Origin: a phage
Reading direction: 5' to 3' (one strand)
Sequence record: NC_103567.1
DNA: 49,223 bases
Within the stretch, counting starts at the first letter, position 1. The number at the start of each line of letters is the position of its first letter. Shown here piece after piece: positions 1,621 through 49,105 of the stretch. Both the position numbers and the translations under genes were made by a program. Under the pieces are notes generated by a model. The model was given only the letters and a program-made list of their open reading frames with translations, searched no databases and was not told the origin of the DNA.

Positions 1621-1641
1621 AATAGCACTTTTTGTTAAAAC
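1621..1641 (+). promoter_or_regulatory. 21-bp early-promoter-associated motif, class I (AATAGCACTTTTTGTTAAAAC)
   Basis: Matches the dispersed motif; TGG-CATAAT extended -10-like element about 22 bp downstream; gene follows. Confidence 0.6.
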
Positions 1642-31148: not shown

Positions 31149-31574
31149 ATGCACGTAATCACCGGAGAAATTCGCAAAGAGCCATTTGTAAAGCAAGGCG
31201 CAAACGGCACATTATACATCGTTGAGCTTTCGGAGTCATTTAAAGATCGTGAAGGTAATCGACAATACACCAATTACAAATTCTTCTTTAATGCTAAAAG
31301 CGACGGCATGAATAATTGGTATCGTGAAGCATTTCAGCAGGGTAAAGTTATTTCTGTATCATGCGATCAGTTACGCATTGATAGCCAGGAATACAACGGG
31401 CAGATTTATAACACATTGACGGCGGCGGGTTTTCCTAATCTTTTATTCAGTCAACGCGGAGAAGGGCAAGCGCCACAACAGCAGCAACCTCGACAGCAAC
31501 AACAAGCGCCACGCCAGCAAGCGCCTCAAAACAACGAGCCGCCTATGGATTTTGATGATGATATCCCATTCTGA
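31149..31574 (+). CDS. ssb: single-stranded DNA-binding protein
   Basis: 141 aa with Gln/Pro-rich linker and C-terminal acidic tail DFDDDIPF. Confidence 0.8.
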   Translation: MHVITGEIRKEPFVKQGANGTLYIVELSESFKDREGNRQYTNYKFFFNAKSDGMNNWYREAFQQGKVISVSCDQLRIDSQEYNGQIYNTLTAAGFPNLLFSQRGEGQAPQQQQPRQQQQAPRQQAPQNNEPPMDFDDDIPF

Positions 31575-34140: not shown

Positions 34141-35067
34141 TTATAATAAGTCACTTGCCTTGTAAAGCCTCCGCTCTATTCCATTTTTGAATTTACCGTT
34201 AATTGGTAACATTACGTCTAATTCGCGATCATCAGCAGCAATCAAAGTATCGCGATCATTAGCATGGCACACAACGCGCATTTTGCGATCACCTTTGTAG
34301 CGATACGCTACTATTTCAAGATTCGACGCAGAGAAGCAAGCCCATACTTCTTGTCCCGTAGCTAGGTGGATATGTTGCGCATCAATCCAATCAACGCAAA
34401 GGTAAATTGTTTTGTCAGTCTTGCCAGTTACCGCAACGGAGCCGCGCGTGTAATCCTTAGCGTAAAAACTGCTTTGACCTTCCTCATTGACGAAAAGAAT
34501 ATTACACATTTCATCATCCAGTTCATCGCTATGCACCAAGTGGCAAGGAATTGCGTGTATATGCTCGCAATATCCATTGTCATGAGTTTTTACTCCAACT
34601 TGATACGATTCGCCGTCTAATGGATAAAACGCCTCAAAAACGCTTAGATTTGTTATTTCCATGCGTTCAGTTTTATCCATCACCTCAACACATTTTTCAT
34701 GTGGTGCTTGCGATCCGAAATTGTAACCTGAGTCACGTTTTGCCGCTTTGTTGGCCTTGTTGACAACCTCAACCGGAACCAGGTTTAACCATTCTCCTAG
34801 AGTGTCGATTGCTTCACTGTAATTTTCACCACGTATGCGCATGAATAATCCGATCCCTGAATCATTCCCGCATTGGTTGCAAATGTTTCCGCCGTCGCCT
34901 TTCTCGTTGATTTTGTCAGTCCAACGAAAGCGATCTTTACCGCCGCAATAAGGGCAAGGCTGATGCTTTCCGTTAAAGGTTAATTGAGGAATATCGCAAA
35001 GTTTCATCAATGCCGCTTGCCACATGCCGCGCATCTTTGGGATTACTTCTTCTTTTTGATAATGCAT
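34141..35067 (-). CDS. DNA primase (zinc-ribbon plus Toprim-like)
   Basis: 308 aa; CPYCGGKDRFRW...CNQCG matches the primase zinc-ribbon pattern CPxCGGxDRF...CxxCG. Confidence 0.7.
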   Translation of the reverse strand: MHYQKEEVIPKMRGMWQAALMKLCDIPQLTFNGKHQPCPYCGGKDRFRWTDKINEKGDGGNICNQCGNDSGIGLFMRIRGENYSEAIDTLGEWLNLVPVEVVNKANKAAKRDSGYNFGSQAPHEKCVEVMDKTERMEITNLSVFEAFYPLDGESYQVGVKTHDNGYCEHIHAIPCHLVHSDELDDEMCNILFVNEEGQSSFYAKDYTRGSVAVTGKTDKTIYLCVDWIDAQHIHLATGQEVWACFSASNLEIVAYRYKGDRKMRVVCHANDRDTLIAADDRELDVMLPINGKFKNGIERRLYKASDLL

Positions 35068-35126: not shown

Positions 35127-35735
35127 TTAGCAATCAGTGCTATCGACGGAAATCACAACGCGTTTCTTCTGATTGGCTTCCTTTGCTTTGCGCCGTTCTT
35201 CTTTCGCCTTGTCTCGTTCAGCCTTGCGCCGCGCTTTCTCCTTCTCGCGTTCTTCTGGACTCATAGACCGCAACGGATCGTAAGGACGCACAAATCCTCT
35301 TGCTTCCGCTTCCTCTTTGGTTACAAATCGCATGAGCTTTCTGTTGCTGCAACGATTCTCTAATGGCTTGCCGTTGTTGTCAAAGCGCAAATCTGGACGG
35401 CAATATGAAGCGCGGAAGCCGTTAAAACCTTTGCGGCGGTAATCCTTTTGGATCAGTTCAGCGCCTTTAGCTGAAATCATGCCGCGCTCTTTCCATCCCC
35501 ACACTGTTTTAAGGTTAACGCCAATCTCACGCGCCAACGCAGCACAGCCGCCATAAGCGCTAACCACCTCATCAAGCCTCGCTTTTAATCCTGCCCTTAC
35601 TTCTTCCTTTAGTACCAGATAACCGCTAACAGGTGCGCGGCGCTTCCGGTCTTTACCACGCCTTACGCCGTTGTTACCATTGATTGTGCGTTTGTCGATT
35701 TCGCCCGTTGAGGCCGCAATTTTGATTTCGCTCAT
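35127..35735 (-). CDS. DNA-binding protein with predicted helix-turn-helix and highly basic C-terminal tail
   Basis: 202 aa; GCAALAREIGVNLKTVWGWKERG looks like an HTH; C-terminus KEKARRKAERDKAKEERRKAKEANQKK. Confidence 0.6.
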   Translation of the reverse strand: MSEIKIAASTGEIDKRTINGNNGVRRGKDRKRRAPVSGYLVLKEEVRAGLKARLDEVVSAYGGCAALAREIGVNLKTVWGWKERGMISAKGAELIQKDYRRKGFNGFRASYCRPDLRFDNNGKPLENRCSNRKLMRFVTKEEAEARGFVRPYDPLRSMSPEEREKEKARRKAERDKAKEERRKAKEANQKKRVVISVDSTDC

Positions 35736-35745
35736 ATTTTCACCT

Positions 35746-35767
35746 ATAGCACTTTTTGCTAAAAAAC
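35746..35767 (+). promoter_or_regulatory. 21-bp motif, class I variant
   Basis: TATAGCACTTTTTGCTAAAAAAC, then TGTGTATGAT -10-like element; helicase gene follows. Confidence 0.55.
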
Positions 35768-35823: not shown

Positions 35824-37797
35824 ATGATTCCTAACATTGAAAAGCAGATTGCAGATCTGGGAGAGGAAAGGATTAAGGCAATCCAGAAGCGTTTCACGGT
35901 TGGTGAGATTGTCCCGTATGAATACCAATGCGTTGCTTACGCTGAAATTGCAAAGCGCTTGAGTAAGTATGTTGATCCGTTTTTCGTTAAAGCGGCGGTG
36001 TCGGCAGGTAAAACAATCATCTTTGCTATGGTTGCGGCTCAGTGCAGGAAAATGGGATTGAAAGCGTTATTTCTGGCGCGTCAATCTGAAATTGTGGATC
36101 AGGATTCAAAAGAGATTAGCGCCTTTGGTGTTCCGAATTCCGTTTATTGCGCTGGCCTGAATACCAAAAGCGCTTATTTCCCGATTGTTGTAGGATCGGA
36201 AGGTACTGTAATTGGCGGATTGAATAAGGCGTTAGGTGATTACGTCCCACAGGTTTTAGGTATAGATGAATGTCATCAAGTCAACTGGAATGATATTGTT
36301 GAAGCCGAGGAAAACGGCGAAAGCATAGAGCAAATGATGACACCGAAAGGTGAACCAGTTGAAGGCAATCCGTTGCTGATTGGTTCAGGCCGCGCACAAT
36401 ACACCATTATCATTGCAGAAATGCGCCGCCGTTGTCTTGAGACTTACGGTCATCAGTTGCGTATATTTGGAATGACAGGATCGGAATATCGCGGAATTGA
36501 GCCGATACTTGTCGAAGATAAAAGAATTCCTGGGTTTTGGCGTGAGCAGATCACAAACATTGATACTGATTACCTGGTAAAATTTGGTTCAGTTGTTCCC
36601 ACTTATTTTGGCAATGTTGGTGATTTGGGTTACGACTTATCAGAATTTACGCCAGTGAATGAATTTGGCGTTGCTGATTATGACCAGAAGCAATTAAAGG
36701 CCATGAGTGACAAGATTCACCAATCAGGAACCATGACGCAGAAAATAATGCAGATGGTTCACGAGGTGATGAAAAACCGCTTGTGCGCTCTTGTTACTTG
36801 CGCTGACGAAAGGCACTGCAAAGAGGCAGCGGCGGCGCTTCCTCCTGGCACGAAATATCACATTATTACCGGAAAAACTGGAGAGAAACAGAGGCGCTTA
36901 TGGCTTGAGGATGCTTATGAAGGCAGGGTGAAATATATTTTTCAGGTTCAGGCGCTAACAACTGGCGTGAACGTGCCGCCGTGGGATACTTCTGTTATTT
37001 TGCGTAAGATCGGAAGTCTCACGCTATTAACTCAGCTTTTGGGGCGTGGTATGCGTCAATTAAAAACATACCATAAAGAAGTATTGGGGATGCACAAAAC
37101 GGATCACCTTGTTTTGGATTTTTCAGGCACGATGTTTGAAATGGGTAATTTGTATTTCGATCCGATGTTAGAGCAAGCGCAATTCCAGTTACGTAAATCA
37201 CAGGACAAAGATCCGAAATATTGCCCGATTTGCGGTACAGAAAATTCATTCTATGCTCGCCGTTGCATTAATGAGGATGAAAACGGAAATCGTTGTGAAC
37301 ATTTCTGGACGTTCCAGGAATGTGAGGATCAGATTGATGACCGCACAAAGAAAGTTATTGTAAAAGGTTGCGGCGCAAAAAATGACGTTGCGGCGCGTGT
37401 ATGCCGTTGCTGTAATGTTCAGTTACGCGATCCAAATGATAACTTATCCGGCAAGATGTACCGTAAAAACGATTGGTGCGACGTGTTAGATTTTAATGTG
37501 ACGCTGACAAAAAACCAGGCTGGCGTAATATTCTGCTACACGTTACGTGATAGTGGCGGCGTAGAATTCAGGGCATACGAAAAATATTTCCCTGAATCAG
37601 AACACAAGATATGTAAAACGCTTTGGACAAAGGCGGTTAGAACACATGTTATAGATCGCCAAGCCGCAAACTTTATGATCGCTTGCCGCAATGCAATTAA
37701 GATCATGAGTTATGCGGGGCAAATATTGCCGCCAAAACGTGTTACCCATCGCAAGAACACAAAGAAAGAAGATTTGATCGCACAGAAGGAGTTTTAA
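35824..37797 (+). CDS. superfamily-2 ATP-dependent helicase with C-terminal zinc-ribbon motifs
   Basis: 657 aa; Walker A VSAGKT, DExH-like LGIDECHQV; C-terminal CPICG...C..C and CGAKN...CRCC pairs. Confidence 0.8.
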   Translation: MIPNIEKQIADLGEERIKAIQKRFTVGEIVPYEYQCVAYAEIAKRLSKYVDPFFVKAAVSAGKTIIFAMVAAQCRKMGLKALFLARQSEIVDQDSKEISAFGVPNSVYCAGLNTKSAYFPIVVGSEGTVIGGLNKALGDYVPQVLGIDECHQVNWNDIVEAEENGESIEQMMTPKGEPVEGNPLLIGSGRAQYTIIIAEMRRRCLETYGHQLRIFGMTGSEYRGIEPILVEDKRIPGFWREQITNIDTDYLVKFGSVVPTYFGNVGDLGYDLSEFTPVNEFGVADYDQKQLKAMSDKIHQSGTMTQKIMQMVHEVMKNRLCALVTCADERHCKEAAAALPPGTKYHIITGKTGEKQRRLWLEDAYEGRVKYIFQVQALTTGVNVPPWDTSVILRKIGSLTLLTQLLGRGMRQLKTYHKEVLGMHKTDHLVLDFSGTMFEMGNLYFDPMLEQAQFQLRKSQDKDPKYCPICGTENSFYARRCINEDENGNRCEHFWTFQECEDQIDDRTKKVIVKGCGAKNDVAARVCRCCNVQLRDPNDNLSGKMYRKNDWCDVLDFNVTLTKNQAGVIFCYTLRDSGGVEFRAYEKYFPESEHKICKTLWTKAVRTHVIDRQAANFMIACRNAIKIMSYAGQILPPKRVTHRKNTKKEDLIAQKEF

Positions 37798-37799
37798 AA

Positions 37800-38207
37800 A
37801 TGGTTACTGATAAAGGCGATTATCTGGAGTATTACGACAAATCAGATCCAGATGACAGAAAAGAGGAAGCGCACCAGGTTGATTCTTATTCATGGTTAAC
37901 ATATGAGTTTCCAATGTGGCTTGTTTGGCACACTAAAAACGAAGGGAAGAAAACAATAGGCACAGCAGTAAAGGATCAGCAAGCAGGTGTAAAAAAAGGA
38001 GTAAGCGACATTCTAATCCTGACTGGTTTTATTGGCTGCAAATATGCATTCATTGCAATTGAGCTTAAACGAGCCAACAAGAAAGGAACTAAAGTAAGCC
38101 AGGAACAAAGGGAATTCTTGCGCCGCGTTAGGGAATGCGGAGGATTTGCCGCAGTATGCTATGGTGTAGATCAAGTAAAATTGGCTATCGCAGACGCTAC
38201 AAAATAG
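37800..38207 (+). CDS. VRR-NUC-like PD-(D/E)xK nuclease
   Basis: 135 aa; DILILTGF...IAIELKRAN fits a D...ExK core; immediately follows the helicase. Confidence 0.6.
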   Translation: MVTDKGDYLEYYDKSDPDDRKEEAHQVDSYSWLTYEFPMWLVWHTKNEGKKTIGTAVKDQQAGVKKGVSDILILTGFIGCKYAFIAIELKRANKKGTKVSQEQREFLRRVRECGGFAAVCYGVDQVKLAIADATK

Positions 38208-42016: not shown

Positions 42017-42402
42017 AAAAGAAATTAATGGCTGTTTTGATGTGCGTTATGCTTTCCGGTTGTTCTGCGTCGAGCTTGTTACCTGGCCTGATTGGTAGCA
42101 AGCCCGATATAACAGCACAGGCAGGATCTGAAAATGTGAAACAAACTGTTGGTGTAACTGCAAAGCATGATACATCAAGCAAGCAGGAAACCACATTTAA
42201 AGAATCGGCTGTTGGAAAGGTTGACACGTCGAATAAAAAACAGGTGAGCACTTCAAGCATTAAGGCAGATAACATCACAGCGGAAAGAATAGAGATCCGA
42301 AATAATGATGGTCTTAATGTTCCGGCAATCGCAATGGGTATATTGATGTTTATTGCGGGTATGCTGGCAGGGTGGGCACTTAAACGTAACAAGGCGGCAT
42401 AA
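42013..42402 (+). CDS. unimolecular spanin
   Basis: 129 aa; N-terminal lipoprotein signal [17 protein letters not shown] and C-terminal helix [18 protein letters not shown], the architecture described for the T1 unimolecular spanin. Confidence 0.7.
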
Positions 42403-42418
42403 GCCGCCTTTTCTTTTA
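42391..42418 (+). terminator. rho-independent terminator after the lysis cassette
   Basis: AAGGCGGCATAAGCCGCCTT followed by a T-rich run. Confidence 0.6.
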
Positions 42419-42637
42419 AAAAATATTGTTCATTAAGTCTTGGAAACTATTACCGCTATAATCCTTTTCCTCAATAATGTGAGCGCCTTTCTTTTTTATA
42501 TCCCACAGCATTTTTTCATATTCGCAGCGGTTAATGCCAAACGTACTACCATCATCAACATATGCGGTTCCTTTGTTGTTGAAAACGTCAAATGTAACAT
42601 TAACAACGCGAATTGTTTTGATAGTGCATTTTAACAT
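42416..42637 (-). CDS. hypothetical protein
   Basis: 73-aa ORF; AAAGGA RBS on the minus strand; motif copy at 42698 upstream. Confidence 0.55.
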   Translation of the reverse strand: MLKCTIKTIRVVNVTFDVFNNKGTAYVDDGSTFGINRCEYEKMLWDIKKKGAHIIEEKDYSGNSFQDLMNNIF

Positions 42638-42697
42638 TTTGTTTTCCTTTTGTTGCTACGTTTCGTTAAAACAAATATACCCGATACAAGATCGGGT

Positions 42698-42718
42698 GTT
42701 TTAACAAAAAGTGCTATT
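42698..42718 (-). promoter_or_regulatory. 21-bp motif, class I (reverse complement)
   Basis: GTTTTAACAAAAAGTGCTATT on the plus strand; an inverted repeat lies downstream in the direction of transcription. Confidence 0.6.
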
Positions 42719-42834
42719 CAAAGCGCCTGACGTGAATTAGTAGTTCACCGTCATCATTTGTTAACTGGTGCTCATTATCTTCAAACGCTCGCATATCACT
42801 GTAAAGCAACAACATTAGTGCATAGACAAAATCA

Positions 42835-43227
42835 TCATGCGAAATTTGCATTGCTGAACTTTCTTTCAAAATAAGATCTATCAAATGCTGGCTTGCTGAA
42901 TAATTCTTCATCGCTCATTTTCTCAATGTTCATCATCTCCCACACATAACGATTGGAATCACCTTCCAGGCTATGCAACTCAAAATTAAACGGCCTTTTC
43001 ATCTTGTTTTTGCACCAGTACACGCAATGAACGCCGTCAAGATATCCATAACCCATCATTCGCGCTATAAACTCTTTGCTTGAGCTTGAAGCGAAATAGC
43101 GGGGCGTTACCCCCGCATTTTTGGCGAGCCTTTCACATTCACGGTGACGGAATATAAATCTTGCTAACTCTTGGCGGTTGAATTTCTCGCGAGACTCGCA
43201 AAAGCGATACAGATCTAATAAGAACAT
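42835..43227 (-). CDS. hypothetical protein, translationally coupled to the upstream P-loop ATPase gene
   Basis: 130-aa ORF starting 2-3 nt after the stop of the 526-aa gene. Confidence 0.55.
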   Translation of the reverse strand: MFLLDLYRFCESREKFNRQELARFIFRHRECERLAKNAGVTPRYFASSSSKEFIARMMGYGYLDGVHCVYWCKNKMKRPFNFELHSLEGDSNRYVWEMMNIEKMSDEELFSKPAFDRSYFERKFSNANFA

Positions 43228-43229
43228 GA

Positions 43230-44810
43230 TTACCCCATTAACGCCGGATTTACATAAACAAATTTACCAACGCTGCAAACATAATTCTTTTCTTCAAGCA
43301 TTGGCAATAATTGTTCCTCAATTCGTTTCATCACTCCTGATTGACCTGTAAACGGCTTAACCTTACGCGCACTTTCATAGATAGCTCTTGCATTGGTAAC
43401 GCCTTTATTTTGACGTGAGATCTTAATGATTATTTCAATTAACTTGCTCATTTCTGCATCATCTCCAGCGTGACCGGAAGCATTCGCGGCGTTGATATAT
43501 GTTTTGCTTAATTCGCTGAACATCACCAAAGCCTCTTGCATTGTCTCAACTTCAATTTCTCGCGACTTTTGCGGCGTACCGTTTGGATTAAACCAATTGC
43601 GGATCGTGTGCAATACTGACGCAATGCGGATCACTTGCTTATCCATTTTACCCAAAGCACCACGCAACATTGTATGTGAATATTTCCCGCCGTCTGCTAA
43701 ATCTGGCTCTAATTGCTGGCGAGCAATATTAAGAACACGCATTGCAGAACGTGACGGCTTCAATACCACATTTTGTTCAGTCATGATGTTATGAATCAAC
43801 TGGAAATATTGCGCCTTTAATTCTTTATCAACTGGCGTGTAATCAAGATCACCATTTTCATCAATAAATACACGCTCGCCTAACATTGTTTTTTCACGTA
43901 CAAGCAAGAAACGTTCACTAACACCGATACCACGCGCCCCTGCATCCATGATCCCTTTTATCGTTTCATCCTGGGCAATTACGCTCATGCAGCCCAACGC
44001 AACAAAACTCATATTGTTTTCAGAGTTGGCGCGAGCTATTGAAACGTGTCCGGCGTCCCATGCTTTTAGAACCAATTCGCTGTTAGTCTTGCGATCACTA
44101 TTAGCGTAAGTCAATCCGAGTAAGCTGTTGATGCTTGTTGCTTCATCGGAAATGACAGCAAAGTTACCCTGGCGATTGTTGATCTTTGCTAACCCTTCCG
44201 GCGTGGTGTCTGATACCGGAAAAACGATATCGCACATTTTTTCTAACTTTTCCTCTAATTCCTCCTTTTCCTCAAACAGCGCCGCTAACTCAGTGCCGGA
44301 ACGTTCAGCTTTCAATTCCTTTTCAACGCCTTTTAATTTCGCTGCGATCTTCTTTCGCTCTTTCTTGCGTTGTTCGTTGATGCGCTCAACTTCACAGACC
44401 ATTGGCGCAATAGCCAGGCTGTTGATTGCTGATTTACCAGTTGATGGCGGCTGACTGGTTACAACATAAAGCGCCGTTGGTTGTTCAGTGCCGTGGTACT
44501 CAACTTGGAAGCGTCCAACCATAGCGGCGGAAACGCAACCAATGAAATGCATATAGGCCGATGATTCAGGAAATTGAACAGATTGCGCAATGCTACGTGA
44601 CAGTTTACCCACAACATCAACATCATTACCCAAAGAGATCACAGGATAGCGGTCATTAGCGCCGTTGATATCCTTTACAGGTTCCCAAAAGCTGGACGAT
44701 TGGCGGTAGCCGTTAGACTGAATAGCAACGCGAAGCGGCGATGTTCCCTGCGATTCTGCAATGGCTATAACTTGTTGAGGTGTCAATTTGTTGGTGTCAA
44801 AGTCAAACAT
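43230..44810 (-). CDS. P-loop NTPase, possibly a replicative-helicase or primase-associated ATPase
   Basis: 526 aa; Walker A-like SQPPSTGKSA, charged coiled-coil stretch, Walker B-like FAVISDE; own motif-type promoter. Confidence 0.55.
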   Translation of the reverse strand: MFDFDTNKLTPQQVIAIAESQGTSPLRVAIQSNGYRQSSSFWEPVKDINGANDRYPVISLGNDVDVVGKLSRSIAQSVQFPESSAYMHFIGCVSAAMVGRFQVEYHGTEQPTALYVVTSQPPSTGKSAINSLAIAPMVCEVERINEQRKKERKKIAAKLKGVEKELKAERSGTELAALFEEKEELEEKLEKMCDIVFPVSDTTPEGLAKINNRQGNFAVISDEATSINSLLGLTYANSDRKTNSELVLKAWDAGHVSIARANSENNMSFVALGCMSVIAQDETIKGIMDAGARGIGVSERFLLVREKTMLGERVFIDENGDLDYTPVDKELKAQYFQLIHNIMTEQNVVLKPSRSAMRVLNIARQQLEPDLADGGKYSHTMLRGALGKMDKQVIRIASVLHTIRNWFNPNGTPQKSREIEVETMQEALVMFSELSKTYINAANASGHAGDDAEMSKLIEIIIKISRQNKGVTNARAIYESARKVKPFTGQSGVMKRIEEQLLPMLEEKNYVCSVGKFVYVNPALMG

Positions 44811-44861
44811 CTAAAAATCTCCTTCTTGTTGCCGCTAATTATAACGGCAACATTCTACAGC

Positions 44862-44882
44862 CTTTTAGCAATTCGTGCTATT
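44862..44882 (-). promoter_or_regulatory. 21-bp motif, class II (reverse complement)
   Basis: CTTTTAGCAATTCGTGCTATT on the plus strand upstream of the 526-aa gene. Confidence 0.6.
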
Positions 44883-45126
44883 TGATCGGCTCAACCCTGG
44901 CTAATAACCTTCCATCTATAATGCTATGACATTCAAGAGTTTTAGGATCGAATGCAAGCGAACGATGGAACGTATGACCAATCAGCAAATATGAATGCTT
45001 ATCCCTGATGCGATAGACCGTTTCACCTTCCTTTAATGACGATATCGCACTAAAAACAACCTTGTAACGATATTTTTGCATAGCCTCAGAACGGTGAGGC
45101 GTATAGTCTTTTTCTGGTAAACTCAT
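44878..45126 (-). CDS. hypothetical protein
   Basis: 82-aa ORF overlapping the upstream gene stop. Confidence 0.5.
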   Translation of the reverse strand: MSLPEKDYTPHRSEAMQKYRYKVVFSAISSLKEGETVYRIRDKHSYLLIGHTFHRSLAFDPKTLECHSIIDGRLLARVEPIK

Positions 45127-45485
45127 GAGTATTTGGCCTCAAACAGATAAGCACCGCCAGCGGCTGAAAATCCAACTTCTTCACGATACAGCGTGAAACG
45201 GTCGCCGTTTTCGTCGAACACGTATCCAGCAACAGCACCTAACACGCGGCCTTGTTCGATCTGGTAACGCTTATCGGCTTTGAAAGTTTTCTTGATCTGC
45301 ATGGAGTGGTTTACCCATGTGCATTTAATGGTTTTGGTCTTAACATTTCGGAATGTTAATCCGGTTAAGTTGGCGTGAATCCATTTCCCATCTAACTTAA
45401 CGAAAGTATCATCATTTTCGTCTACCCGCGCTTTGTATAGGCGGTTATCAGATCCGATAAGTTTGATTGATTTGAATTTAGCCAT
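45123..45485 (-). CDS. hypothetical protein
   Basis: 120-aa ORF; AAAGGAGA RBS on the minus strand; motif copy upstream. Confidence 0.6.
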   Translation of the reverse strand: MAKFKSIKLIGSDNRLYKARVDENDDTFVKLDGKWIHANLTGLTFRNVKTKTIKCTWVNHSMQIKKTFKADKRYQIEQGRVLGAVAGYVFDENGDRFTLYREEVGFSAAGGAYLFEAKYS

Positions 45486-45541
45486 TTGATTTATCTCCTT
45501 TTGTTTTCGTTGAAAGCATTATGCCGGATACGTGATCCGGC

Positions 45542-45562
45542 GTTTTAACAAAAAGTGCTATT
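45542..45562 (-). promoter_or_regulatory. 21-bp motif, class I (reverse complement)
   Basis: GTTTTAACAAAAAGTGCTATT on the plus strand. Confidence 0.6.
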
Positions 45563-46253
45563 TCTGATTTGCCAGGCATACAGCAAGCGCAAAGCCGCGC
45601 GGAGTGAGTGAGCGGATCAGCTTTGTTCGCTTAGACTTGCCGCCGAGCTTTTGCCAGCCTGGATTGTTGTTCCCTGTTTGCAATACTGCGTTTGTATCCG
45701 GCATTACAAAGCCGTTACCCGTCCAAAGACAAGTTTTTTTGGTGTACGCATCGCGAGCGGGAATGATTTCAGGAAAGTGAGGATGTTTATCATCTTCCGG
45801 CAACAGACCTCCAAACGCGCAAGGATGAAAGATAAAATCAGGTTGCCGCCACATTGACGACAGAACACTAACAGGATTCTCAATCATGTATGGAACGTTA
45901 AACCGATCCGCAATATTGGCAGCAATCTTTGCCGTTTCAACCGCCTTTTTCTGGAAGTCTGGATCACGTTCACGCTTTGCTGCAAAGTGACGCGATCCGC
46001 TAACAGCTAAATCAGTGCATGGAGGGAATGCAATAATAAAATCTGGAGTGCCAAAGACGCGCATCATTGCGTTATGCTGGAATGATAATCCGATCCACTC
46101 ATTCAAATAAACTATGTTGGGATGAGTCACGCGCACTGATTGGTAATCACCATGATCAGCACCGTCGAAATTAAAGCACAGCACTTTGTGACCACGTTCA
46201 GCCCACGGCAACGCAGCATAACCAGAACCATCAAATAGTGAGAAAATAAGCAT
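45558..46253 (-). CDS. truncated C5-cytosine-methyltransferase-like protein (motifs I, IV, VI present; no recognisable target-recognition domain)
   Basis: 231 aa; SLFDGSGYA (motif I FxGxG-like), FPPCTDLAVSG (motif IV, catalytic Pro-Cys), MIENPVS (motif VI ENV-like), spaced as in C5-MTases. Confidence 0.5.
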   Translation of the reverse strand: MLIFSLFDGSGYAALPWAERGHKVLCFNFDGADHGDYQSVRVTHPNIVYLNEWIGLSFQHNAMMRVFGTPDFIIAFPPCTDLAVSGSRHFAAKRERDPDFQKKAVETAKIAANIADRFNVPYMIENPVSVLSSMWRQPDFIFHPCAFGGLLPEDDKHPHFPEIIPARDAYTKKTCLWTGNGFVMPDTNAVLQTGNNNPGWQKLGGKSKRTKLIRSLTPRGFALAVCLANQK

Positions 46254-46361
46254 GTTTAAATCCTTTCTGTATTACCTTGCAAGGCATTTTGTTTGTAGGT
46301 GTGACAATCGTATTAGTTACGGCCTGAAATCGCGACATAATGCGAAACAGGCCTCTATTTT

Positions 46362-46439
46362 TTACTTACAGAATGGGCATGTTGTTTTATCCCCGCTTCC
46401 GCCGTGTTTTGGACAGCAAATTTTTTCGATAGGTGTCAT
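46362..46439 (-). CDS. 25-aa zinc-ribbon-like micropeptide
   Basis: AAGGAG RBS overlapping the upstream stop; hand translation MTPIEKICCPKHGGSGDKTTCPFCK; coordinates approximate. Confidence 0.35.
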   Translation of the reverse strand: MTPIEKICCPKHGGSGDKTTCPFCK

Positions 46440-46451
46440 TTTAAATACTCC

Positions 46452-46694
46452 TTAGAATGGGAAACAACGCTTGCAAGATGGATCGAAGTTACAACCGCAA
46501 TCATTGATTATTGCGTTAGGATCAGCAAGCATCACGCTACTTTCTTGATCCATATCCATAGCGCCTAATGCGTCATCAAGCGTTATTTCAAGATAGGCAA
46601 CTTTAAGCGCCCATTCCTTGTTGAGTCCAGCCGCCTCCGCTTCATGTAGGCGAGCAAAGAAAGCATCTTGAACCATATCAACCCCACTTCTCAA
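46452..46694 (-). CDS. hypothetical protein with C-terminal Cys cluster
   Basis: 80-aa ORF ending CGCNFDPSCKRCFPF; overlaps the upstream gene. Confidence 0.5.
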   Translation of the reverse strand: MRSGVDMVQDAFFARLHEAEAAGLNKEWALKVAYLEITLDDALGAMDMDQESSVMLADPNAIINDCGCNFDPSCKRCFPF

Positions 46695-49084: not shown

Positions 49085-49105
49085 GTTTTAACAAAAAGTG
49101 CTATT
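49085..49105 (-). promoter_or_regulatory. 21-bp motif, class I (reverse complement)
   Basis: GTTTTAACAAAAAGTGCTATT on the plus strand; outermost leftward promoter candidate. Confidence 0.6.

Follow-up and report, generated by a model that had tools for sequence, protein, structure and literature searches.

A DUF3987-family helicase gene and its small conserved neighbour in a T1-like phage genome

The phage genome NC_103567.1 (49,223 nucleotides, referred to here as the window) encodes a protein of 526 aa, gp58, which belongs to the DUF3987 family, a group of divergent MCM-like SF6 helicases of phages and mobile elements. This protein, encoded at 43230..44810 on the minus strand, is very probably the replicative DNA helicase of the phage. 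Directly downstream on the same strand lies gp57 (42835..43227, 130 aa), and gp58 is conserved together with this small partner throughout the T1-like phages. A first-pass annotation of the nucleotide sequence had described both open reading frames, which were found again here, and had suggested that the larger product might be something unusual. The latter suggestion was not borne out, as gp58 is an annotated and widely conserved DUF3987 helicase.

Family assignment and predicted architecture of gp58

The profile search proposed in the first-pass annotation gave a confident assignment to a replicative helicase family. gp58 matches Pfam DUF3987 (PF13148) over residues 81-432 with E=5.9e-43 and 147.9 bits (cutoff 27 bits), and the match covers model positions 3-352 of 364. 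DUF3987 is also matched by all 29 aligned relatives of gp58. In addition, gp58 matches PHROG 2373, annotated as 'DNA helicase', from end to end (E=4e-253), and its RefSeq product is likewise named 'DNA helicase'. An exhaustive phmmer search of a 50%-identity representative library (1.84 billion representative proteins) yielded 2511 clusters of relatives at E<=0.001, and gp58 was found by tblastn in 919 phage records. With relatives in such numbers, the open reading frame is not a chance occurrence. It is preceded by the sequence AAGGAG 8 nt 5' of the ATG and ends with a TAA stop codon at 43232-43230. Longer relatives of gp58 carry replication domains at their N-terminus: one protein combines a DnaG CHC2 zinc finger with DUF3987 and is 35% identical across the entire gp58 query (P0181), and two further fusions join DUF3987 to DnaB_N (P0248) and to PriCT_2 (P0280).

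The predicted layout of gp58 begins with an N-terminal helical region (residues ~1-97), continues with the AAA+ core (residues ~98-325) and a lid containing K388 (residues ~326-448), and ends in a C-terminal winged helix (residues ~449-526). Within the core, the Walker A motif (Q120-PPSTG-K126-S) is followed by a coiled-coil hairpin (residues ~138-191), the segment T203-P-E205, the Walker B motif (I220-S-D-E223), a pre-sensor-1 hairpin with R260 (residues 255-270), and finally Q280 and the segment S298-E-R300-F. The string SQPPSTGKSA, which had been singled out as Walker A-like, occupies residues 119-128, and its lysine K126 is invariant in an alignment of diverse relatives (136/136). The same holds for E223, R260, R300, and K388, and Q280 is kept in 135 of the 136 sequences. 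The description of VISDE (residues 219-223) as Walker B-like is sound for the glutamate E223 but not for the preceding position, since D222 is variable and an aspartate occurs there in only 53 of the 136 relatives. The serine in front of this position is kept in 126/136. The charged coiled-coil stretch had also been recognised correctly: 56% of residues 138-191 are charged, and in the AlphaFold2 model the helices 126-168 and 172-191 form a helical hairpin over this stretch. The insert is a family-wide feature, with a distance from K126 to T203 of 48-86 residues (median 78).

The AlphaFold2 model of gp58, calculated from the 29-sequence alignment, is confident (pLDDT 89.2, pTM 0.87). The predicted AAA+ fold is most similar to that of MCM and includes a winged helix at the C-terminus, and the link to MCM rests on this prediction together with a published HHsearch result. 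Searches with the single sequence and with the 29-sequence profile retrieved no related PDB structure, and a scan of 29 family members gave no match to Pfam MCM (PF00493), Mg-chelatase or AAA at E<=10. As neither search connects it to MCM, gp58 is best described as MCM-like by its modelled fold and not as a member of the MCM family. The features of SF4 DnaB-like helicases, namely a RecA-type core and the DnaB_C signature, were not found in gp58. In the model, the sensor-1 strand (273-279) comes after two strands at 255-258 and 267-270. From this order of secondary-structure elements, not from superposition, R260 would belong to the pre-sensor-1 hairpin, Q280 would occupy the sensor-1 position, R300 in S-E-R-F (compare S-R-F in MCM) would be the putative arginine finger, and K388 would be the lid (sensor-2) residue.

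MCM proteins move 3'->5'. Compared with archaeal and eukaryotic MCM (8ouw chain 7, 3f8t, 4r7z), gp58 shows 12-17% identity and no HMMER-level similarity. Unlike MCM, it lacks the N-terminal OB-fold/zinc domain and has a long coiled-coil hairpin after the Walker A helix, and in much of the DUF3987 family the Walker B motif reads S-x-E instead of D-E. A helix-2 insert is also not evident, as the DSSP string of gp58 contains helix 204-214 alone between strand beta-2 and the Walker B strand. The protein resembles the DUF3987 helicases (PF13148) in its Walker A and B residues, its C-terminal winged helix, and the coiled-coil insert between Walker A and strand beta-2. Its length corresponds to the stand-alone form of the family, which has ~520 aa.

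Phage DUF3987 proteins have been described as divergent SF6 helicases that are distant from MCM. [quoted passage not shown] 2016, PMC4889955). In a later list of ATPase domains found in primase fusions, DUF3987 appears as one of those that take the place of MCM, RepA or DnaB (Kazlauskas et al. 2018, PMC5862659). [quoted passage not shown] AgaPH is the only DUF3987 protein for which ATP-dependent DNA unwinding is documented, and it moves 5'->3' (PMC11724360). AgaPH has an N-terminal PriCT and is encoded directly after an AEP primase-polymerase (PMC11724360), whereas gp58 has a small helical region at its N-terminus and the primase of its phage is of the zinc-ribbon type and encoded ~8 kb away. 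In the Drexlerviridae, gp49, an ortholog of gp58, was already called a putative DUF3987 helicase (PMC8004638). The literature searched contained no biochemistry or genetics for gp58 or any Drexlerviridae ortholog, and nothing usable on T1 replication genetics, host dna-gene requirements or defence-escape mutations in the helicase gene.

Gene order in relatives and the other replication genes

The region 42300-45600 of the window is 100% identical to Salmonella phage phSE-2 (KX015770 / NC_031026), which is assigned to Drexlerviridae, Tempevirinae, Tlsvirus. Many Tlsvirus phages of Citrobacter, Escherichia, and Salmonella are 95-99% identical in this region. The gene pair is present in the same order in T1, where ST9 is 59% identical to gp58 and the downstream gene product ST10 is 53% identical to gp57.

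A sister group is formed by phages of ~46-48 kb, such as Salmonella phage STGO-35-1 (Caminolopintovirus) and Klebsiella phage VLCpiS13a, the helicases of which are 35-41% identical to gp58. In all evaluable loci of this group (28/28), a zinc-ribbon primase that is 34-37% identical to gp42 of the window is encoded 221-817 nt downstream of the helicase gene in convergent orientation. After the primase follow an SF2 helicase, a VRR-NUC-like gene, and exonuclease VIII. The replication genes of the sister group thus form one cluster, whereas the same genes lie apart in the Drexlerviridae. In the window, the genes between them include a DNA methyltransferase, a repair exonuclease, and the lysis cassette. 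The earlier remark that gp58 is not adjacent to the primase or the SF2 helicase is accurate, as these genes are ~8 kb and ~5.4 kb away from gp58/gp57. The distance to the primase reflects a lineage-specific rearrangement and gives no sign of an unrelated function.

The primase gp42 (34141..35067, minus strand) has a zinc ribbon of the T7 gp4 / P4 alpha type (Pfam Zn_Ribbon_Prim, E=1.4e-13) and is the presumed functional partner of gp58. The SF2 helicase (35824-37797, plus strand) contains ResIII/Helicase_C and resembles RadD, with an NCBIfam match of E=1.2e-48 that lies below the equivalog cutoff. A VRR-NUC gene follows it, and this arrangement suggests a module for repair or recombination rather than fork unwinding. 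The phage also encodes an SSB (31149..31574, plus strand), which was recognised from its translation and an NCBIfam match to the SSB C-terminus. The protein ends in PPMDFDDDIPF, and this tip corresponds to the C-terminal region in the profile of E. coli-type SSB. The annotation of the phage genome contains no DNA polymerase. Together with the host-type tip of the SSB, this suggests that helicase, primase, and SSB are provided by the phage itself and that synthesis relies on the Pol III holoenzyme of the host. Classical T1 genetics identified phage genes that are needed for DNA synthesis, as well as a dependence on host elongation functions.

The partner gp57 and its transcription unit

The first-pass annotation placed the 130-aa open reading frame 2-3 nt after the stop codon of the 526-aa frame, and the gap is indeed 2 nt: the TAA of gp58 is followed by 'tc' and then by the ATG of gp57 at 43227. 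A GGGG run resembling a Shine-Dalgarno sequence is found just 5' of this ATG. Given the 2-nt gap, translation of gp57 may be coupled to that of gp58.

The predicted fold of gp57 is a winged helix, in which a helix-turn-helix is followed by a beta-hairpin wing. This domain (residues ~1-80) is basic, with a pI of 9.7, and the C-terminal part is acidic, with a pI of 4.7. The acidic part includes the conserved segment M-S-D-E-E-L-F (104-110), in which D106, L109, and F110 are invariant. Some homologs of gp57 end immediately after this segment. The protein is assigned to phrog_2794, which has no assigned function, and is hypothetical in RefSeq. Searches for gp57 in Pfam, NCBIfam, and PADLOC returned no match. 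In searches of 5.8 billion proteins, 49 clusters were obtained with the single sequence and 174 clusters with a profile. Among the matches listed, those with source names or long contigs come from ~50-kb genomes of T1-like phages or from assemblies in which such genomes are included. By tblastn, gp57 was found in 834 phage records. A set of 80 IMG/VR loci with helicases 64-100% identical to gp58 was examined for gene order, and gp57 follows gp58 on the same strand in 79 of them. The remaining locus ends 73 nt past the helicase and is not evaluable, so that the pair is found in 79/79 evaluable loci.

No homolog of gp57 turned up in the sister-group loci up to 8 kb from the helicase, so that DUF3987 helicases do not generally require this protein. 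The small genes located 3' of the sister-group helicase were considered as homologs and rejected (hhalign probability <=0.2%); one of them encodes an ASCH/DUF3850 protein. An origin of gp57 as a duplicate of the C-terminal winged helix of gp58 was likewise dismissed, with an hhalign probability of 0.1%. The UniProt entry 'Helicase' of Vibrio phage Vc1 (345 aa) has the appearance of a fusion between helicase and partner. However, its helicase segment is duplicated and its partner part is out of frame, and it was set aside as a sequence or assembly artefact. It is concluded that gp57 is a lineage-specific winged-helix protein that is specific to the Drexlerviridae.

A small open reading frame, gp56, overlaps the 3' end of gp57. 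Counted from its first ATG it encodes 65 aa (42714..42911, minus strand), while RefSeq lists a 45-aa form with its start at 42851. Residues 2-65 of the long form are matched by phrog_9539. gp56 is the final gene ahead of the next copy of a 17-nt promoter-like motif (42699-42715) and a terminator-like hairpin (42679-42697). Together, this motif and hairpin (42679..42715, minus strand) mark the downstream boundary of the gp58-gp57-gp56 unit. At the upstream end, a perfect copy of the motif, AGCACGAATTGCTAAAA, is located 5' of gp58 at 44863..44879 on the minus strand and corresponds to the motif-type promoter that the first-pass annotation placed at 44862. The motif AGCACNWWTTGYTAAAA occurs in 20 copies in the window, compared with 0.75 expected, and most copies are co-oriented with their flanking genes. 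In a comparison across phages, 18 copies were counted in the window, 16 in T1, and 675 in 1.29 Mb of Drexlerviridae loci versus 0 in 0.41 Mb of sister-group loci. In Citrobacter phage Stevie, equivalent sites are annotated as repeat_region. A TATAAT hexamer (44843-44838) is found 22 nt past the TTGCTA of the copy upstream of gp58, inside the loop of a GTTGCCG/CGGCAAC hairpin (44851-44828). In four copies that were inspected, TTGYTA and TATAAT are always 22 nt apart, which is a non-canonical spacing. A scan with the sigma-70 consensus detected no site 5' of gp58, and regional sites were fewer than expected from shuffles. Near gp58 and gp57, no iterons or origin-like repeat array were found. TRF matches at 44247-44338 were considered as origin repeats and discarded, as they reflect the repetitive codons of the coiled coil.

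The most likely function of gp57 is that of a helicase accessory that recognises DNA or an origin or takes part in loading, and its tight coupling to gp58 favours such a role with the helicase. A more specific form of this proposal, based on analogy and rather unlikely as it stands, is that gp57 would be a dedicated loader or adaptor of the MCM-like helicase. Its winged helix would bind DNA or the winged helix of gp58, comparable to Cdt1 and MCM, and the acidic M-S-D-E-E-L-F segment would tether the complex to a further component of the replisome. Cdt1 is a winged-helix chaperone of MCM and illustrates that winged-helix proteins can escort MCM-type rings. In phage SPP1, the gene of the ring helicase G40P adjoins a ~130-aa gene encoding the loader G39P, and the host polymerase is used (PMC3561973). 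The comparison is an analogy only: unlike gp58 and gp57, G40P is a DnaB-type helicase with a RecA fold and G39P is not a winged helix, and gp57 has no sequence or specific fold match to either G39P or Cdt1.

The main competing explanation regards gp57 as a transcription factor that, for example, recognises the 17-nt promoter-like motif, with the adjacency to the helicase reflecting shared expression timing only. This reading is a serious alternative, albeit less likely than that of an accessory. The basic winged-helix fold resembles that of many transcription regulators, and gp57 gave weak hits to the activation domain of T4 MotA, although the fold as such is generic. The motif and gp57 also share their distribution, as both are present in the Drexlerviridae and were not found in the sister-group loci, and a purely regulatory role fits equally well with the lack of a homolog near the sister-group helicase. 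However, this correlation amounts to a single phylogenetic split, and other genes follow the same pattern, such as that of a 202-aa HTH protein at 35127-35735. Furthermore, gp57 starts 2 nt after the helicase gene and the two are adjacent in 79/79 loci; both observations speak for a stoichiometric partnership.

Functional interpretation and significance

Two roles had been offered for gp58 in the first-pass annotation, and the one in agreement with the data is a replicative helicase working with the primase. It is supported by the DUF3987 assignment, the MCM-like fold, the fusions with primase and DnaB_N domains, the primase adjacency in the sister group, and the literature on the family (PMC4889955, PMC11724360). 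The other, a host-takeover or counter-defence ATPase unrelated to replication, could point to the position of gp58 within a run of small leftward genes without assigned function. It was dropped because PADLOC returned no match for gp58 or gp57. Gene context provides no sign of such a role, and family, fold, fusions, and sister-group synteny all indicate replication, which makes it highly improbable. Somewhat less remote, but still improbable, is a function of gp58 as an initiator or origin-melting ATPase, or as a recombination or restart helicase, with host DnaB or the phage SF2 helicase driving the forks. The winged helix at the C-terminus could serve in origin recognition, a second helicase is present in the phage, and the gp58 gene lies apart from the primase in the window. 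Against this, the resemblance of the SF2 enzyme to RadD and its pairing with a VRR-NUC nuclease are typical of repair. DUF3987 replaces DnaB, MCM or RepA domains in primase fusions (PMC5862659), one relative carries a DnaB N-terminal domain, and the assayed member of the family unwinds forked DNA (PMC11724360).

As a replicative helicase, gp58 would form a ring, probably a hexamer, and hydrolyse ATP at the subunit interfaces, where R300 of the 'SERF' segment would act in trans like the 'SRF' of MCM. The ring would move along one DNA strand by means of the pre-sensor-1 hairpin with R260 and thereby unwind the fork. The zinc-ribbon primase gp42 would lay primers, the host DNA polymerase III holoenzyme would perform synthesis, and gp57 would assist the helicase by recognising DNA or an origin or by helping to load the ring.

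The first-pass annotation held that a confident profile match to a replicative helicase family, combined with conserved synteny in related phages, would make the protein ordinary. Both were observed. The finding is thus real but ordinary: gp58 is an annotated replication gene of a family that has already been discussed, and not a new system. A replicative role of the DUF3987 family was already predicted and has been partly characterised, and the window adds nothing unexpected to this picture. If gp57 were a loader, it would be the first one described for a DUF3987 helicase, and it would reveal the way in which an MCM-type ring is linked with the bacterial Pol III replisome. T1-like phages are easy to grow and to engineer, and they are therefore convenient for addressing the polarity of the helicase, the cooperation between the ring and host Pol III, and the contribution of the winged-helix partner.

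Replication genes of the window and of the sister group

The sister-group phages, whose DUF3987 helicase is 35–41% identical to gp58, have genomes of about 46–48 kb. They include the Caminolopintovirus STGO-35-1, the Klebsiella phage VLCpiS13a, and many IMG/VR contigs (loci L003, L005, and L090–L116). Their replication genes form a single contiguous cluster encoding the DUF3987 helicase, a zinc-ribbon primase, an SF2 helicase, a VRR-NUC-like protein, and exonuclease VIII. The helicase and primase genes are separated by small ASCH/DUF3850 genes, and immediately beside the helicase start is a conserved 72-aa ORF.

In the window, the genes for the SF2 helicase and a VRR-NUC nuclease occupy 35824–38207(+), with the nuclease gene directly 3' of the helicase gene. 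The SF2 helicase (657 aa) is RadD/YejH-like, matching the NCBIfam model with an E-value of 1.2e-48 at a score below its cutoff. This gene pair is conserved beside the primase gene both in T1 and in the sister group.

A phage single-stranded DNA-binding protein (SSB) is encoded at 31149–31574(+). The last residues of this protein are PPMDFDDDIPF, and it shows a match to the C-terminal region of the E. coli-type SSB profile. Together, these two features suggest that the phage SSB recruits the SSB-binding replication and repair proteins of the host.

Surroundings of the gp58 helicase gene

Past the gene of gp57, the winged-helix partner of the helicase, lies the small ORF gp56 (42714–42911(-)), for which there are two possible start sites. 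In its longer version, of 65 aa, the ORF shares 77 nt with the partner gene, and phrog_9539 is matched along the entire length. RefSeq lists gp56 as a 45-aa protein that begins at 42851, whereas the annotation of Citrobacter phage Stevie gives the long form. On the other side, a GTTGCCG...CGGCAAC inverted repeat (44828–44851(-)) is located directly upstream of the helicase ribosome-binding site, and its loop contains a TATAAT-like hexamer.

In several relatives, HNH homing-endonuclease genes directly adjoin the helicase gene. Examples are T1, where the gene is ST8 (46085–46624 of locus L002), Citrobacter phage CF1, and Escherichia phage JMPW2. Unlike these three, the window has no HNH homing-endonuclease gene beside the helicase gene.

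Doubtful public records

Nearly identical T1-like genomes appear in public databases with unlikely host names. One of them, Streptococcus phage MBBL140, shows 97.6% identity across the helicase region, and 14–21 "Campylobacter phage" records and Vibrio phage Vc1 belong to the same set. A Nitratidesulfovibrio liaohensis assembly contains a 46.7-kb T1-like contig (L006) with a 72% identical helicase. These records are probably contaminating coliphages or carry mislabelled hosts.

The Vc1 "Helicase" entry (UniProt A0A6M5CB08; P0112 among the protein relatives) comprises 345 aa. In it, a duplicated C-terminal segment of the helicase is joined to the first ~40 residues of the partner, after which the sequence runs out of frame. 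The entry is thus no natural helicase–partner fusion but an artefact of assembly or annotation.

The repeated 17-nt motif

The window contains 20 copies of the 17-nt motif AGCACNWWTTGYTAAAA, compared with 0.75 expected. Examples are located at 1624–1640(+), 35748–35764(+), 42699–42715(-), 44863–44879(-), and 49086–49102(-). Flanking genes are mostly co-oriented with the motif, and the upstream gene's stop codon is often overlapped by it. Each of the four copies examined has a TATAAT-like hexamer 22 nt past TTGYTA, a constant spacing that is non-canonical, and five leftward copies share extended similarity over ~63 nt. The 0.41 Mb of sister-group loci contains no copy. T1 has 16 copies, and the motif is present in every Drexlerviridae locus examined (675 copies in 1.29 Mb). 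The motif may be a promoter specific to the phage and dependent on a phage factor.
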